This document shows positions 1-14,100 of a stretch of 64,000 bases of DNA, one piece after another. The notes beneath the pieces were generated by a model. It was not told the origin of the DNA, did no database searches, and saw only the letters and a program-made list of their open reading frames with translations. Source of the stretch: Clarias gariepinus (taxonomy: Eukaryota); contig NC_071110.1 of NCBI RefSeq assembly GCF_024256425.1, forward strand, positions 2,599,451-2,663,450. Reading direction: 5' to 3'. A program made the position numbers and the translations under genes. Numbering within the stretch: the first letter of the stretch is position 1; each line of letters opens with the position of its first letter.

Positions 1-39
1 GACGAATGACGTCACTTTTCCCATTCATATCTATCTAGC

Positions 40-535
40 TTCCCTTTACAGATATCTTTAACTCAGTTGTAGACATCCACATTTCAAAATGTGGATATCT
101 ACAAGTAAATTATGACTCTCCATAATTCCTGTTAGAGATATCTACAATTTAATTCTGACTAGTCACAATTCCAATTCAAGATATCATCAACTCCCCTCAA
201 TTAAAGATATCTATAATATCCCTTTTAGATATCTTAAATTCTATTTTAACTAGTCAAAACTGGATTATAGATATCTTGAACTGGTATGGTCACTAGTCAG
301 AATGAAATTGTAGATATCTCTAACAGGAATTGTGAATAGACATAATTTAGAATCAGATATCTGTTATCAAATTATAGATATCTTTAAATGAATTTTGATT
401 AGAGATATCTCAAATGAGAGATATCTTTAACTTTCATTCCTCCTAGTCAAATTGTAATTACAGATATCTTGAATATAGAGTTTTGACTAGGCAAAATAAC
501 GTTGCAGATATCTGTAATTGTGTCAGAAGTTACGG
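40..535. repeat. Irregular tandem array, period ~40-45 bp, with ~13 copies of the palindrome AGATATCT alternating with ACTAGTCA-like palindromes. Ends ~85 bp upstream of a + strand ATG at 620.
   Basis: Direct reading: AGATATCT recurs at ~50,137,214,230,270,313,354,374,405,419,463,507. GACTAGTC/CTAGTCA recur at ~163,249,291,444,486. A CRE-like TGACGTCA sits at 7-14. Confidence 0.7.
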
Positions 536-619
536 CAAATAGGAGGACGGGTTTGATATTGGCGGGAGCGGCTACTGTTCAACCCAGAGATAGACTAACT
601 TTGTTTTTGTACATTAAGC

Positions 620-776
620 ATGTCGGAACAGCAGGAGGAACAACGTGTAGTTTTTGACCGGATTTTTAACGCTGCAGCCCGTGCAAGACAGGAGCTGTCA
701 GCAAGAAACGATGAGAATTTACTGACTTCAACAAGACGACTATTTCGCCGTCAAGTTCAACGACTTCGGGGTTAGT
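620..776 (+). CDS. Putative first coding exon (MSEQQEEQRVVFDRIFNAAARARQELSARNDENLLTSTRRLFRRQVQRLRG) ending at a GTTAGT donor. Splice-compatible with open reading in 992-1115 and 1263-1501.
   Basis: ATG follows the tandem array. The open frame continues across predicted introns in matching phase. No recognisable domain. Confidence 0.3.
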
Positions 777-2366
777 TCCATTGTTTTAACGGTTGTTGCA
801 TCCTTGTAAGTAATAGGCTAATGACCTGGCCTAATGTACATATTCTTGCTTTAACCAAATAAAAAAGATATTAAGCAAAGATGAACTAAGTTATGTTCGT
901 TGCAGGGGTGGGTATAGTAACGCGAACGTAATGCAAATACTTTTTATGCTGGAAACATTTTAGCTAATTAACAGCTTTGCGTTTGTTTGCAGGCGGGTCT
1001 GGTGGCCGCAGGGAAGAACCTATTTGGCATGCAAACCTCTTCCTTCTTCCAGGGCCTGATAGTGAGATTCTGCCTGCTACATCAGCACTTGCTGAACTCG
1101 CCAAACATGGATTAGGTAATTGTGAGGAAAGCTTATTAAGAAAATAAACTTATTTTATGGCTTGTCAACTATTCTGTGGGTCTCTATATAATTGGAAGCT
1201 AGGAATGTGTTACTCTGCCACTTGAAACTGATCATACTGATGCGTTCCATTTCTATTTTTAGGAAAACCTGTGCATGAGTCTATGAAGCCTGGACATACA
1301 AAGTCAAAGATTGACATAAAATGGAGTTTATCTGAATTAAACAACTTTGTTTGCCAAAGTTATCCTCATATCAGTTTAAATTTGGTAGGCTTTGAATTGG
1401 CAAGGGCAGGCAAAGGACGCAAAATACAGAAATTACAAGTTAGTTCTGTAAAAGAGCTAAAAACATCAGTTGGCAAAAGCAGACTTTACATTGTGCCATG
1501 AGCTACTGTCTTACAGGTATGGAAATATATACATAGGGATTTATATAATTTTTAGTAATGTTATTGTTCTCTGTGTCACATGTCTTTTAAAGTTAAAAAG
1601 TGTCCCTGTTTACCATCAGATAACATCACCACCCTCTGCCAAACCGCAGAATTCATTTCCACCACTCTCCACAGTTGCAGCTATAGAGGAGATCTCACAA
1701 GTGACTGAGGAAAATGTAGTTTCAGATCAGGTAAACCAGTGGTTCTCAGCCTTATTCCTGGAGGATTGCCTCGGCTATTTTAGTGTTTTCCCTTCTGTAC
1801 CACACCTGCATCAATTAAGAAAATGCTGTTAGTTAGTTGATTAGTTAAATCAGGTGTGCTGGTAGCTGAGAAGGCACCAAAATGTGCAGTGCAGTGGTCC
1901 TCCAGTATCAGAGCTGAGAACCATTGAGGTAAACAATATTAAAATGATTGCTATCTACCCATTTTAGACATGTCCATTGTGCATTTTATGTTGATAAGTG
2001 GTAAGCATCATTTTTCAGGTAAGTTTTGGCTGCTGTAAAAAGGTAGACAGTCCTTTTACCACCAAAAGAGATTATTTTGAAAAATTCTATTTAACCCCAA
2101 TTAACTGAAGCAAAAATAACTTGTATATTACCAGGTGACCTCCACATCTTGTGCTATATCCCAGAACTCATTCCAGAATTTCTCAGTTGCTTCGGTACAA
2201 GATGTGACAGTTTTGGCTGAGAATACTCAAGCTCTAAATATGGTTTCAGATCAGGTAACTCATTTTGCCATGGTACCGAAAAGTTTAATTAAATAAACCT
2301 TTTGTGTGTGTGTACTATTTTGTCATGATTTGTGATAAATCTCTTTTTCACAATTTACTTCTCAAG

Positions 2367-2444
2367 GCTCTTCAAGAATGGCAAGCAATACGTGCCCAGC
2401 AAGACCAGGAGTATAAAGAAAGTTTGTTAGTGGATGAGGAAAAG
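2367..2444 (+). CDS. Coding exon, coiled-coil-like (ALQEWQAIRAQQDQEYKESLLVDEEK).
   Basis: AG acceptor and GTAATA donor; phase 0, 78 nt. Part of a coiled-coil + UBX arrangement resembling FAF1/UBXN C-termini. Confidence 0.5.
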
Positions 2445-2542
2445 GTAATATTCTCGAAGTTTTTTATGTATGTTTTCCATGCACTTACAAAAAGCAAAAA
2501 TTCCTTTTTTTTTTTTTTTTTTAACATCTGTTCTGTCAACAG

Positions 2543-2590
2543 GAGCTGAAGAAACTGGCTTATCAGGCCTCTGAGGAAAAGCGTCAAAAG
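2543..2590 (+). CDS. Coding exon (ELKKLAYQASEEKRQK).
   Basis: Acceptor caacag, donor AAG|gtttgt; 48 nt in frame with flanking exons. Confidence 0.45.
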
Positions 2591-2658
2591 GTTTGTTTGT
2601 TATATAAGTTTATTGAACTAACAGTAGAATTTTTTTACTGAACCAAATCGCATTTCAG

Positions 2659-11994: not shown

Positions 11995-12446
11995 CTAAAA
12001 TGGTGAATACAAAGACAGAACACATACTTGCAGTTATTGGACAAGTAACTATTTAAAGTGTGAAACAACAAATAAATAAAGGCAACAATCAGTTACAAGG
12101 TGTTATGACAATACTGTGTTAGATGTCATCACTGTGTTTTTTAGTACTCTACCACAAGAAATATTTGAGTTGCAACCTACATAATCTAATTCATAATCTA
12201 GACAAACAAAACAGGCTGCCAAGGTTGTACATTAGGTTTACACTCAAGCACACTAATGAAATAGTTAATAGCCAATAAAGACGTCCACTGCATAGGTTAA
12301 TTTTTATCCGACTGCATTGCCAAAGAATTGTCAGTAGAACTGATTTAGTGTCTACTGCATGGCAAAGTCTTGAAAGCCTGACAGTATAGCCTTGACTATA
12401 TTATTACAGTACAGAGGTCATGGATTGTTTGTCAGGATGAATTCAC

Positions 12447-12631
12447 CTTATGAGGCGCATATTTCCATCTATATGCCACAGGCTGTTGGGGTATGGTGCA
12501 TGATACACCCGTCTTGCCACAGTGCTGCTCCATCTCCTAGCAGTAGCTGCTGGGTTTACCTGAGCCAACATCTCCCGCACCCTACGTCGTGGAACCAGGT
12601 GTCCATCCGCATGTAGCAATGCTCTCATCAT
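12447..12631 (-). CDS. Exon 3 of the integrase-like gene (MMRALLHADGHLVPRRRVREMLAQVNPAATARRWSSTVARRVYHAPYPNSLWHIDGNMRLI-).
   Basis: Acceptor ttctag|ATGATG, donor AAG|gtgaat. Holds the first catalytic Asp (LWHIDGNM). The phase-2 end joins exon 4 to make an Arg codon. Confidence 0.65.
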
Positions 12632-12815
12632 CTAGAATAATAATAATAATAATGTCAGTTGCTAATAATACAATTTAATCTGCTTAGCAGTAAAAAATAA
12701 ACCCCAATGCAGTAAGTGATCGCTTACCTCATATCCGGAATTTGGGTGCTGGTCTTGAAGTCTTCACATGGTGTTAGAGTTCTTCATTTTCTATTGCTGA
12801 AAATCTGCTCCTCAC

Positions 12816-12961
12816 TGGTATACCAAGCAACTTCGCCCTCTTATATAAGAATGAGGAGGAGCATCCCAAAATTTTTGCAATTCGCTTAACTGTGTTACCT
12901 TGCTTCATAAGAAAATCTATTTGGTCCCTGGTTACCTGAATGGCTGGTCGCCCTTTTCGTC
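12816..12961 (-). CDS. Exon 2 of the integrase-like gene, helix-turn-helix-like (GRKGRPAIQVTRDQIDFLMKQGNTVKRIAKILGCSSSFLYKRAKLLGIP).
   Basis: Acceptor tgtttcag|G, donor CCA|gtgagg. Exon 1 is phase 1 in and this exon is phase 0 out, which matches. The sequence has a DNA-binding HTH flavour (TVKRIAKILGCS…LYKRAK). Confidence 0.55.
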
Positions 12962-13429
12962 CTGAAACAAAATAGACTTTTTTAAATATTCATGGTTTAT
13001 CAAAAATTACACTTTTCACTGTAAACCACTGTTTTAAATAGAAGCAAGCATTAAAGTGAATTTCACATGAATTTCCATATACTTGGACTCATAAGAACAT
13101 GTAACCCTGATCCACAACAGCCTCTTATACTTAACTGCTTATTTGCATTTATCATTCCGCCACGGCATTCATGTACTCCTAGCGACAGAATTCATAGCTG
13201 TCCGTTTTTTTTTTTTATCAAGTTCTTTTACATCCACATTCTCATTTGTTTGGGTCAATTTTAATACACGCTTCATTCACAGTAAGAAAAAAAGACACTA
13301 CACGCGAACTGAGCGCTCCGTAATGTCTGTTATTCCTTTTCCGTAGTTACTATGCTAATTATTTATATCAATTGCTAAATTATTAATATTAATTATTAAA
13401 TCGTGTTTTACAAAGCACAATAAACTCAC

Positions 13430-13766
13430 CTGAAAGAATTCGAGGGGCTGAAAACCTTCCATTTTTAGCTAACAAAACTTCAGACATCAGTGTCCTGAGA
13501 CCATCCAGACTCCGTTGTAGGTCATCAAATGTGTCTGGAGACAATAAATGTTCAATGCGACGTAAATTTCTCCCACAACTCTGGAGTGAACGAAGCTCTC
13601 GTTCCCCACAAATGCCTTGGTTGTGTACGCGTTCTATTTCATGACATTTTCTAATTATTTTATCTACAACAGCGACCGCCATTTCTTCTGATACCTGTTC
13701 AAATAATTTGTCTGCTGGGCAAATATCCAATGGGAAGCCTTTCACGAGCAACGTCGGACACAACAA
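13430..13766 (-). CDS. Exon 1 of the integrase-like gene (MLCPTLLVKGFPLDICPADKLFEQ…LLAKNGRFSAPRILSG).
   Basis: The ATG at 13766 lies ~25 bp from the tandem array at 13790-14100. Donor TCAG|gtgagt. Confidence 0.55.
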
Positions 13767-13789
13767 TGCTGACGAGTCAAAATGACGTT

Positions 13790-14100
13790 TAAGATATCTT
13801 TAACTTTAATTCTGCCTAGGCAAAACTCAGTTATAGATATCTGTAATTGTAATTTAGAATGTGCGACGAGTCGAACATCAGTTTTAGTGACGTCATTGCA
13901 GATATCCGTAATTCAGTTTTGACTCTTTAAAACTTAATTGCAGATATCCCTAACTTTCATTGTGACTATCCGAAACTGAATTACAGATATCTCTAACTGT
14001 CATTTTGATTCGTAAGAATGTAATTACAACTAGTCAAAAATATGTTGTTGATATCTGTAATGTTCATTCCGGATAGTCAAATTTAGCCATTAAATGTTAA
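13790..14100. repeat. Second instance of the AGATATCT / CTAGTCA tandem array family. Same orientation as the array at 40-535. Carries TGACGTCA at 13888-13895.
   Basis: AGATATCT variants at ~13793, 13835, 13902, 13942, 13985, 14052. CTAGGCAAAACT / ACTAGTCAAAAAT spacers match units in the array at 40-535. Confidence 0.7.

Follow-up and report, generated by a model that had tools for sequence, protein, structure and literature searches.

IS3EU elements are characterised by TA..TA termini and by target site duplications (TSDs) of 6 bp (PMC10045372); in fungi, where families carrying alpha-kinase and TET/JBP dioxygenase genes have been described, the termini read TAYGG..CCRTA and a second gene lies opposite the transposase (PMC12730594), and in Selaginella the terminal inverted repeats (TIRs) of GingerRoot are 100-150 bp long (2019, PMC6839031). 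A literature search, with Repbase outside its scope, found no mechanistic or animal-element structural account of the IS3EU superfamily, no description of a HECT-carrying metazoan IS3EU lineage, and no paper linking HECT with IS3EU.

The window considered here is a whole stretch of 64,000 nucleotides of Clarias gariepinus DNA, which carries two arrays of short repeated sites; these arrays are the two subterminal ends of one cut-and-paste DNA transposon of ~14 kb, of the IS3EU/GingerRoot type. Very likely, positions 1-14114 represent an autonomous-type copy of this element without its first ~160 bp, and the arrays are cis-acting transposition sequences. The features of the copy are the following:

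1..513, no strand assigned: T1-type subterminal array on the HECT side, a 43/21.5-bp lattice of 14 sites of AGATATCT type (A) and 5 of TGACTAGTCA type (B)
7..14, no strand assigned: CRE-like TGACGTCA in the T1 non-array island, ~165-175 bp from the terminus
514..619, plus strand: unique spacer from the array to the HECT ATG, candidate core promoter and 5'UTR
620..10189, plus strand: multi-exon HECT E3 ligase gene (~900 aa), with UBX-like and HECT domains and the catalytic Cys present, disrupted here
4816..9023, no strand assigned: nested Tc1/mariner-like insertion of 4208 bp in a HECT coding exon, with a TA target duplication and TIR CAGTAGTTGATCAATTGG...
11226..13682, minus strand: IS3EU DDE transposase pseudogene of four exons (~13682-13428, 12965-12728, 12631-12446 and 11999-11226)
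13683..13769, minus strand: unique spacer from the array to the transposase ATG, candidate core promoter and 5'UTR
13770..14056, no strand assigned: T2-type subterminal array on the transposase side, with A and B sites
13888..13895, no strand assigned: CRE-like TGACGTCA in the T2 non-array island, with GACGTCAC at the equivalent place in Trichomycterus and in the second Clarias copy (L003)
14086..14114, no strand assigned: right TIR of 29 bp, GCCATTAAATGTTAAAACGGCTTGCCATA, the element ending at 14114 and being followed by a (TG)n flank

The right end of the element is found at position 14114 (…GGCTTGCCATA), and the same terminus occurs in Tachysurus, Melanotaenia, Trichomycterus, Haliotis and Mytilus; the left end, with its TIR, lies upstream of the window, ~160 bp before position 1. 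The full extent is provided by a complete second copy from Clarias gariepinus (L003; two Clarias copies were seen), 98.6-98.9% identical to that in the window and located, as judged from its unrelated flanks, at another site. The left region of the window aligns to L003 from 9383 onward (98.6% identity), and the alignment to the complete copy places position 1 at 161 bp inside the element, the T1 array being cut by the window edge. In L003 the 29-bp TIRs (TATGGCAAGCC…) have TATGG..CCATA (TA..TA) termini and are flanked on both sides by the 6-bp TSD CTCGTT; both arrays lie within this single TIR pair, and one TSD surrounds the arrays together with both genes, which bears out the suggestion of an earlier note that the arrays could be the subterminal repeats of one large mobile element carrying the integrase-like gene. 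Further 6-bp TSDs are CAATGT in Haliotis (L010) and ATAGTC and CAAAAC in Mytilus MITEs (L011), while that of Trichomycterus (L005) has 7 bp, GTGTTAG, rather than 6. The termini TATGGCAAGCC...GGCTTGCCATA are found in L003, L005, L010 and L011, with the right terminus at 14104-14114 in the window; the element has, as expected of IS3EU/GingerRoot, TA...TA (TAYGG..CCRTA) termini and a TSD of 6 bp, the latter as seen in L003, L010 and the L011 MITEs, the left end of the window copy being off-window.

The transposase is a DD(35)E enzyme with HTH-type N-terminal domains, matched in Pfam by rva_4 (1e-98), HTH_21 and HTH_23/HTH_28, with no match to Integrase_Zn (HHCC) at E<=0.05, and in NCBIfam by IS481 (9e-19) and IS3 (4e-13); the AF2 model contains two three-helix HTH-like units (pLDDT 72-86). 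Among Repbase entries, the catalytic core is 61% identical to IS3EU-1_CVi (IS3EU-1_CVi_1p), 54% to IS3EU-1_SK (IS3EU-1_SK1p) and 29-39% to four other IS3EU entries, and shares with Ginger1/2 short weak local matches only. By pairwise identities and profile matches, the core groups with IS3EU and IS3/IS481 and not with Ginger1/2, and the HTH N-terminus without HHCC is likewise that of IS3EU/GingerRoot. A Ginger1, Ginger2, Polinton or LTR-type integrase element, in which a Gypsy-like integrase core (with HHCC, GPY/F), LTRs, or pPolB and capsid genes would be expected, was rejected on the negligible Ginger1/2 core similarity, the absence of LTRs, the inverted 29-bp termini and the presence of only two genes; a tyrosine-recombinase element (Crypton, DIRS, Ngaro), which would encode a tyrosine recombinase and lack TSDs, was rejected on the DDE rve-type of the enzyme and the presence of TSDs.

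Homology supports a transposase start at the ATG at 13682-13680 (MAVAVVDKIIRK...). The minus-strand ATG formerly read at 13766 does not exist, the ORF tool opening there on a TTG, and the right array does not abut the start codon as had been thought, since it ends ~87 bp upstream of the ATG, its last site occupying 13770-13779. The HECT and transposase genes are convergent, each starting ~90-105 bp inside an array; in the two spacers, CCAAT at 13727-13731 (transposase side) and the E2F-like TTGGCGGGAG at 559-568 (HECT side) are taken by us to be candidate motifs. The product of the HECT gene, to which P0125 of Clarias gariepinus is 98% identical, is named in genome annotations 'G2/M phase-specific E3 ubiquitin-protein ligase-like'. 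In fishes, abalone and mussel alike, the HECT gene occurs together with transposase and arrays; a HECT ligase cargo conserved from molluscs to fishes is a notable extra on an otherwise ordinary kind of feature. The window copy itself is dead, both of its genes being broken: the transposase carries two stops (~12776 and ~11330) and a 2-bp deletion causing a frameshift (~12765), and the HECT gene is interrupted by the Tc1/mariner-like insertion, which is missing from the sister copy L003.

The 8-mer AGATATCT has 16 exact matches in the 64 kb, against 1.11 expected, a count reached by none of 100 shuffles; 12 fall in 50-513, three in 13792-13992 and one, a stray, at 19606, so that 15 of the 16 lie within the two arrays, and copies with one mismatch extend the right array up to 14056. 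A 43-nt unit is present in both (motif families D1/D2; TRF period 43), and the local alignment of left with right array scores 57 in direct and 44 in inverted orientation, far above shuffled controls (12.9 +/- 1.8); the unit structure that the earlier note saw as shared is therefore real. The 'same orientation' that it also reported is devoid of meaning, because the unit is a palindrome (AATTnnAGATATCTnnAATT, and TGACTAGTCA), the correlation of its PWM with the reverse-complemented PWM being r=0.90. At both ends, A sites alternate every ~21.5 bp with B sites, i.e., the 10-mer TGACTAGTCA at half-unit phase inside the arrays, to give the 43-bp unit, and A-site spacing is 43 bp in 30 of 62 successive intervals. 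Over the window, ACTAGTCA with one mismatch is found 51 times against 65 expected, its enrichment being confined to the arrays, as the 10-mer TGACTAGTCA. In T2, counting from the terminus, A sites occur at +59, +123, +166, +208, +273 and +316, while the B sites are those at +79, +293 and +336.

Relative to the terminus, these sites shift by no more than 1-3 bp between Clarias, Tachysurus, Trichomycterus and Melanotaenia, and their offsets remain fixed over ~660 bp with almost no indels across lineages; in a three-species comparison, A-site columns are 83% identical, the TIR 79% and B-site columns 68%, whereas the spacers reach 38%. In the elements of Haliotis (abalone) and Mytilus (mussel), AGATATCT recurs every 21 bp at both ends; the B motif is not present in the mollusc arrays examined, and may therefore serve a different factor. 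A gene-less Mytilus MITE of 854 bp, flanked by a perfect TSD of 6 bp, consists of TIRs and 30 AGATATCT sites. Array length varies between ends and between species. That the termini of fishes and molluscs are nearly identical could in part be due to horizontal transfer, and not to constraint over long periods. From these sequence comparisons (offsets relative to the terminus conserved in four fish lineages, AGATATCT every 21 bp in molluscs, and a mussel MITE that is little more than TIRs and 30 sites) the arrays are read as transposition cis-elements, probably transposase-binding sites.

Among the other possible readings, that in which the arrays are sites for host transcription factors (GATA-, CREB/ATF- or bZIP-type), co-opted by host genes or acting as the promoters of the transposon itself, without any role in transposition, is considered rather unlikely, even if ~90-105 bp separate each array from the ATG downstream of it and the promoters of the element necessarily fall within 430-780 bp of its termini. 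In the earlier note it had been envisaged that a repeat was co-opted to serve two genes as promoter or enhancer; what survives of this proposal is that the element's own promoters must lie in or near the arrays, while co-option at this locus is not supported, because both genes belong to the transposon and are pseudogenes here, and the same arrays are retained in the mussel MITE, which has no gene to drive. Moreover, the offsets are fixed to the terminus and not to the ATG, the last site lying ~340 bp from the ATG in Melanotaenia (L002) and ~87 bp in Clarias. As to the individual motifs, the canonical consensus of GATA factors is WGATAR, which AGATAT misfits, a T following GATA on both strands of AGATATCT, so that the GATA-type half-sites previously proposed are not canonical GATA sites. 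TGACTAGTCA contains TGAC/GTCA half-sites, which are bZIP-like. The CRE-like site ascribed to each array is indeed there, and both end types have a TGACGT(C/A)A-like site in their non-array island, for T1 in three fish lineages with substitutions (TAACGTCA in Tachysurus, TGACGTAA in Trichomycterus and TGACATCA in Melanotaenia at the position of TGACGTCA) and for T2 in two catfishes only; however, the count of two TGACGTCA in the window is not significant alone, being matched by 9 of 100 shuffles.

It has also to be considered that the reader of the arrays may be all or part of the HECT/UBX ligase, or a host architectural factor, instead of the transposase, in the manner of TNPA of En/Spm or of the Myb-like protein of Harbinger; the co-occurrence of the HECT gene with transposase and arrays in fishes, abalone and mussel, and the two distinct palindromes of fishes, which suggest two readers, speak for this, but it is judged improbable, given that Pfam matched only UBX and HECT in the HECT protein and no DNA-binding domain was detected there, whereas the transposase has two HTH-like units. 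A sea urchin relative has TGATATCA arrays and no HECT gene by tblastn of 23 kb, which is weak evidence in the same direction, the limits of that element being undefined. Neutral growth of a tandem repeat, by satellite-like slippage or unequal exchange and without sequence-specific function, would account for the variable array length and for the 20 perfect 43-bp units of a Melanotaenia copy (L004), from which it follows that unit number expands by tandem duplication; it is very improbable, in view of the contrast between motif and spacer conservation, the fixed offsets and the retention of the same 8-mer core in molluscs. Finally, two mobile elements in tandem, each opening with an array, or an element of LTR/DIRS/Ngaro type whose terminal repeats are direct, might be suspected from an 'integrase-like' protein and from arrays that align in direct orientation too, a similarity due to the palindromic units; this is refuted by the complete copy, in which the 29-bp termini are inverted and a single TSD encloses the two arrays and the two genes, and by the Trichomycterus and Haliotis elements. 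In addition, the DDE transposase is of IS3/IS481 type, and Pfam detected no further family in the two encoded proteins.

If the arrays are transposase-binding sites, several transposase molecules would be recruited by their HTH domains to the phased sites, which follow one another at about two turns of the helix, the palindromes being bound probably by dimers; the two ends would thereby be paired and then cut at the TA termini, and the differing layouts of T1 and T2 may serve to distinguish one end from the other. The distance from terminus to ATG being only ~430 bp on the transposase side and ~780 bp on the HECT side, the promoters of the element are to be placed in or beside the arrays, so that occupancy by the transposase may feed back on expression of the element's genes. 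Regulation of these genes by the arrays is accordingly possible as far as the layout of the sequence goes, and promoter function could contribute to the conservation of arrays lying directly upstream of both genes in autonomous copies.

As a practical consequence, the arrays of the window are not host enhancers, which removes a false lead, and its two genes, being those of a decayed transposon, should be masked and not annotated as a G2E3-like or an uncharacterised integrase gene. The comparison defines the full anatomy of an animal IS3EU element: termini, TSD, asymmetric arrays of phased palindromes, gene-less MITEs and a conserved HECT passenger. More tentatively, and with somewhat less than even confidence, it is proposed that there is a metazoan-wide IS3EU lineage (fishes, abalone, mussel), in which the copies examined with both genes have a HECT/UBX E3 ligase gene convergent to the transposase; the ligase would then be encoded by a transposon, and the multi-copy genes of teleosts and molluscs annotated as 'G2/M phase-specific E3 ubiquitin-protein ligase-like' would derive from this element, the phased palindromic GATATC arrays and the near-invariant TATGGCAAGCCGTTTT terminus forming the conserved scaffold of the transposition complex. 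Should the HECT ligase be a true functional partner, this would be an unusual manipulation of the host by a DNA transposon and would account for the misannotation of a widespread 'G2E3-like' gene family. From the intact copies of Trichomycterus and Clarias, it might be possible to rebuild an active vertebrate IS3EU transposon.

Compared with the known systems, the catfish element shares with IS3EU/GingerRoot the TA..TA (TAYGG..CCRTA) termini, the 6-bp TSDs, an IS3/IS481-related DD(35)E transposase without an Integrase_Zn match, an apparently low copy number and aquatic animals as hosts; it differs from Selaginella GingerRoot in that its TIRs measure just 29 bp and arrays of phased palindromic sites occupy the next 0.3-0.7 kb, and from IS3EU/GingerRoot as described in that it carries a HECT/UBX E3 ligase gene. 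The fungal IS3EU elements belong to the same superfamily, with the same termini and TSD length and an accessory gene opposite the transposase, but in the present case the accessory product is a ubiquitin ligase of the HECT type, carried in metazoan hosts, and the conservation of this cargo extends from molluscs to fishes. In En/Spm (CACTA) and Ac/Ds, the few hundred bp internal to each short TIR are packed with short protein-binding motifs in either orientation, the ends are asymmetric and the subterminal region overlaps the promoter of the element; motif-filled subterminal regions and asymmetric ends are found here too, with a probable promoter overlap, although the transposase superfamily is unrelated and the IS3EU motifs are perfectly palindromic and keep strictly to a 21.5/43-bp lattice. 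Maize MuDR likewise has two convergently transcribed genes (transposase and helper), each driven from a terminal repeat region, but has ~220-bp TIRs in place of site arrays; its transposase is of Mutator type, and its TSD has 9 bp. In the prokaryotic Tn7 (TnsB) and phage Mu (MuA), DDE enzymes of the retroviral-integrase fold bind several sites of ~22 bp per end, three or four in number and non-palindromic, whose number and spacing differ between left and right; the IS3EU ends resemble them in the DDE enzyme and in site number and spacing differing between ends, and depart from them in having 9-22 sites, which are palindromic.

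The two tandem arrays at window positions 1-513 and 13770-14056 lie at the opposite ends of one DNA transposon. Its two convergent genes, and the exact matches to the A site (AGATATCT) that a motif scan gave for the whole window, are distributed as follows.

620-10189, plus strand: HECT gene; ~900-aa product (UBX-like domain; HECT domain at the C-terminus)
13682-11226, minus strand: transposase gene; four exons, 480-aa product
50-513: 12 matches to AGATATCT
13792-13992: 3 matches to AGATATCT
19606: 1 stray match to AGATATCT

When the loci of homologues were compared, the arrays were found to recur at other genomic loci; in particular, a complete second copy is present at a different site in Clarias gariepinus (L003), with 98.6-98.9% identity over window 1-4815, 9024-9586 and 9583-14114. 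The outer limits of this second copy are a 29-bp terminal inverted repeat (TIR), TATGGCAAGCCGTTTTAACATTTAATGGC at one end and its inverted complement at the other, with CTCGTT next to each; the presence of TIRs and of a target site duplication (TSD) around the whole element bears out the proposal of the earlier note in which the arrays are the subterminal repeats of a single large mobile element that carries the integrase gene, and two tandem elements, the other arrangement proposed there, were considered and rejected. The right end of the window copy is at 14114, where a TG run begins, while window position 1 corresponds to element position 162, which puts the left TIR outside the window together with the first three A sites.

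The window copy is dead: compared to L003, its transposase gene carries two stops, an in-frame one near 12776 and another near 11330, as well as a frameshifting 2-bp deletion near 12765, and a HECT coding exon is interrupted by a Tc1/mariner-like insertion of 4208 bp (4816-9023; TA duplication; TIR CAGTAGTTGATC... / CAGTAGTTGATCAATTGG...). The latter is GC-rich at 8001-8500 and holds an internal direct repeat of ~300 bp (7150-7444 and 8475-8769). L003 is intact apart from a piggyBac-like insertion of 1.9 kb in a HECT intron (L003 14749-16633; TTAA duplication; ends CCCTGTAAG...CTTTACAGGG); once nested insertions are subtracted, the length of the element is about 10 kb.

The surrounding DNA is teleost-like, with introns and TG microsatellites, and the transposon is located at the edge of a tandem cluster of finTRIM-like RING/B-box/SPRY genes (16887-62792, minus strand), which includes the following ORFs.

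19916-20542, 31031-31639, 46327-46953, 62118-62792, minus strand: finTRIM-like RING/B-box ORFs
16887-17276, 27746-28297, 39020-39574, 55968-56531, minus strand: finTRIM-like SPRY/B30.2 ORFs

Other repeats were observed in the same region. The right end of the transposon abuts (TG)8 and then a G-rich stretch; about 350 bp beyond it lies a perfect 25-bp x4 tandem repeat (TACTTAACATTATAGTAATTAATTA; 14458-14557), and a perfect 30-nt inverted repeat (AATCGATTCCATGATATGCGCATGCGCCCC; 15030-15059 / 15305-15334), whose arms are 245 nt apart, may represent the ends of a small MITE. A 170-aa ORF at 34520-35032 resembles the DDE portion that forms the C-terminus of a Tc1-like transposase, and at 47397-48750 a 21-bp unit (AGTAGGTGAGATAGGGGTATT) is repeated about 65 times in a minisatellite whose higher-order period is 457 bp.

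The HECT product retains the catalytic Cys, within ANTCHIILRLP, and many teleosts have homologous proteins, named "G2/M phase-specific E3 ubiquitin-protein ligase-like"; the best of these matches, at 98%, comes from Clarias gariepinus, which points to Clarias or a close relative of it as the source of the window. The transposase combines HTH_23/28-like and HTH_21-like units at its N-terminus with an integrase core (PF24764 rva_4, 1e-98) showing a DD(35)E triad (WHIDGN, SDHGVEN, NQRIERLW), and resembles the bacterial IS481 (9e-19) and IS3 (4e-13) transposases; a search of PDB sequences returned only marginal matches to retroviral integrase cores (E about 0.7-0.9). The start codon had been placed at 13766 on the minus strand; that codon, taken from a mechanical ORF list, is TTG, and the real start is the ATG at 13682-13680 (MAVAVVDKIIRK...), which is kept in Trichomycterus and Melanotaenia. 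In an AF2 model computed from a 10-sequence alignment (mean pLDDT 57, catalytic core poorly modelled), the confident N-terminal helices, which alone were used, form two HTH-like three-helix units at pLDDT 72-86. Look-ups of the proteins P0134 and P0122 gave no gene on record.

IS3EU elements are described as ending in TA..TA and as having TSDs that are usually 6 bp long (PMC10045372), as do GingerRoot elements (PMC6839031), and fungal IS3EU families show TAYGG..CCRTA ends and an accessory gene opposite the transposase (PMC12730594); the element described here likewise has TATGG..CCATA termini and 6-bp TSDs. Compared with the Repbase IS3EU catalytic cores (Data S3 of PMC10045372), the transposase core shows 61% identity with IS3EU-1_CVi and 54% with IS3EU-1_SK; four other IS3EU entries give 29-39%. 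The element can be filed as a member of IS3EU/GingerRoot. Ginger1 and Ginger2, whose cores gave only short, weak matches, were rejected, as were Crypton/DIRS/Ngaro and Polinton identities. A search confined to the literature found no paper joining HECT with IS3EU and nothing relevant on G2E3/teleost transposons or on transposon-encoded HECT; as the "1p/2p" labels of Repbase show, more than a single protein is already recorded for some IS3EU entries (Data S3, PMC10045372). The interest for specialists lies in a HECT/UBX ligase that accompanies the transposase from molluscs to fishes, together with a near-invariant terminus and a GATATC lattice.

The 16 exact AGATATCT matches in the window are to be compared with 1.1 expected, and none of 100 shuffles reaches 16. 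The unit structure said to be common to the two arrays is confirmed, a 43-nt unit being present in each; 43 bp is the spacing in 30 of 62 intervals. The unit (consensus AATTnnAGATATCTnnAATT) is palindromic, as shown by a correlation of r=0.90 between its position-weight matrix and the reverse complement of that matrix. A second palindrome, the B site (TGACTAGTCA), is found at half-unit distance. Because of this symmetry, the left and right arrays align far above shuffled controls (12.9 +/- 1.8) both directly (57) and inverted (44), which renders uninformative the claim that they share the same orientation. The CRE-like TGACGTCA reported once in each array does occur twice; two matches alone are not significant. 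Since the units are too diverged, TRF detected no more than two short segments of the arrays (period 43 bp, ~2 copies in each), and motif scans were required instead. The sites of the two end types, T1 and T2, are arranged as follows from the terminus.

T1 end (adjoins HECT in catfishes): A sites at +49, 92, 135, 211, 254, 297, 340 ... 666; B sites at half-phase
T2 end (adjoins transposase in catfishes): A sites at +59, 123, 166, 273, 316; B sites at +79, 100, 293, 336

These offsets match to within 1-3 bp among Clarias, Tachysurus, Trichomycterus and Melanotaenia.

Identity by column class in a three-species alignment (690 bp, nearly indel-free)
A-site columns: 83%
TIR columns: 79%
B-site columns: 68%
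Spacer columns: 38%

A TGACGT(C/A)A-like site is present in a non-array island of each end; counterparts of the T1 site, carrying substitutions, exist in Tachysurus, Trichomycterus and Melanotaenia, and the T2 site has a counterpart in Trichomycterus, with no conservation at this position in Melanotaenia.

Among the other fishes, two chromosomes of Trichomycterus rosablanca hold one copy each, and in both copies HECT and transposase genes are called as convergent: L005 has matching termini, a TSD of 7 bp rather than 6 (GTGTTAG) and a 480-aa transposase product, whereas in L006 the product is only 369 aa and the right terminus is degenerate, without a matching TSD. The Tachysurus copy is degraded and retains one end only. 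In Melanotaenia boesemani, terminus, arrays and convergent gene pair are as in Clarias, and the pairing of end types with genes is reversed with respect to catfishes, T1 adjoining the transposase and T2 the HECT gene (L002 8492-9800; L004 4758-6600). This suggests an inversion of the internal two-gene module, which recombination between the inverted palindromic arrays could have produced. One of these loci, L004, shows satellite-like growth of the array, with 20 perfect 43-bp units, and lacks a transposase in the 10 kb downstream of HECT. Extra termini lie directly beside full copies in Trichomycterus (L006 5085-7046 and 16892-17295, with array fragments) and in Boreogadus saida (L007 6206, preceded by ...GTAGATATC, i.e., array sequence), a hint that arrays of this family may be targets of nested or self-targeted insertion.

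Relatives occur outside vertebrates; the B motif, which is fish-specific, is missing from the mollusc arrays. In the abalone Haliotis asinina, a complete element of 12.2 kb (TSD CAATGT) has convergent transposase and HECT genes, AGATATCT at 21-bp spacing at both ends, and a terminus in which 24 of the first 26 bases equal the fish TIR (TATGGCAAGCCGTTTTCACATTTATT...). The sea urchin Diadema has TGATATCA arrays at 21-22 bp spacing; its two loci are haplotigs of one locus, and hence provide no independent ends or TSD. In Mytilus galloprovincialis, a transposase and HECT pair is accompanied by 62 AGATATCT in 27 kb (L011) and by two gene-less MITEs: one of 854 bp (4121-4974), consisting of TIRs and 30 AGATATCT at 21-bp spacing and nothing else, within a perfect 6-bp TSD (ATAGTC), and one of 908 bp (24897-25804; TSD CAAAAC). 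A local duplication at 4121-5831 repeats the right end and its flank.

The earlier note had also envisaged a repeat co-opted as promoter or enhancer of two different genes. The distance from terminus to ATG is indeed short (about 430 bp at T2, 780 bp at T1), so that each promoter must be in or next to its array; the array-to-ATG spacers hold putative promoter motifs (E2F-like, CCAAT and ETS), and the arrays may also contribute to the expression of the element's own genes. Co-option is nevertheless not the right explanation, given that the arrays are kept in the gene-less Mytilus MITE inserted with a TSD; this is the strongest argument from which we infer, by sequence comparison, that the arrays are probably cis-acting transposition sequences rather than gene promoters. 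As transposition sequences, sites spaced by about two helical turns at both ends could load many copies of a sequence-specific protein onto one face of the DNA; the transposase, in view of its predicted HTH-like units and Pfam HTH matches, would be the obvious candidate, and binding as a dimer would fit the palindromic sites. As a rule, DDE enzymes of this fold, such as TnsB of Tn7 and MuA of Mu, work on asymmetric ends with several sites, and the same is usual in eukaryotic elements with subterminal repeats, such as En/Spm and Ac.
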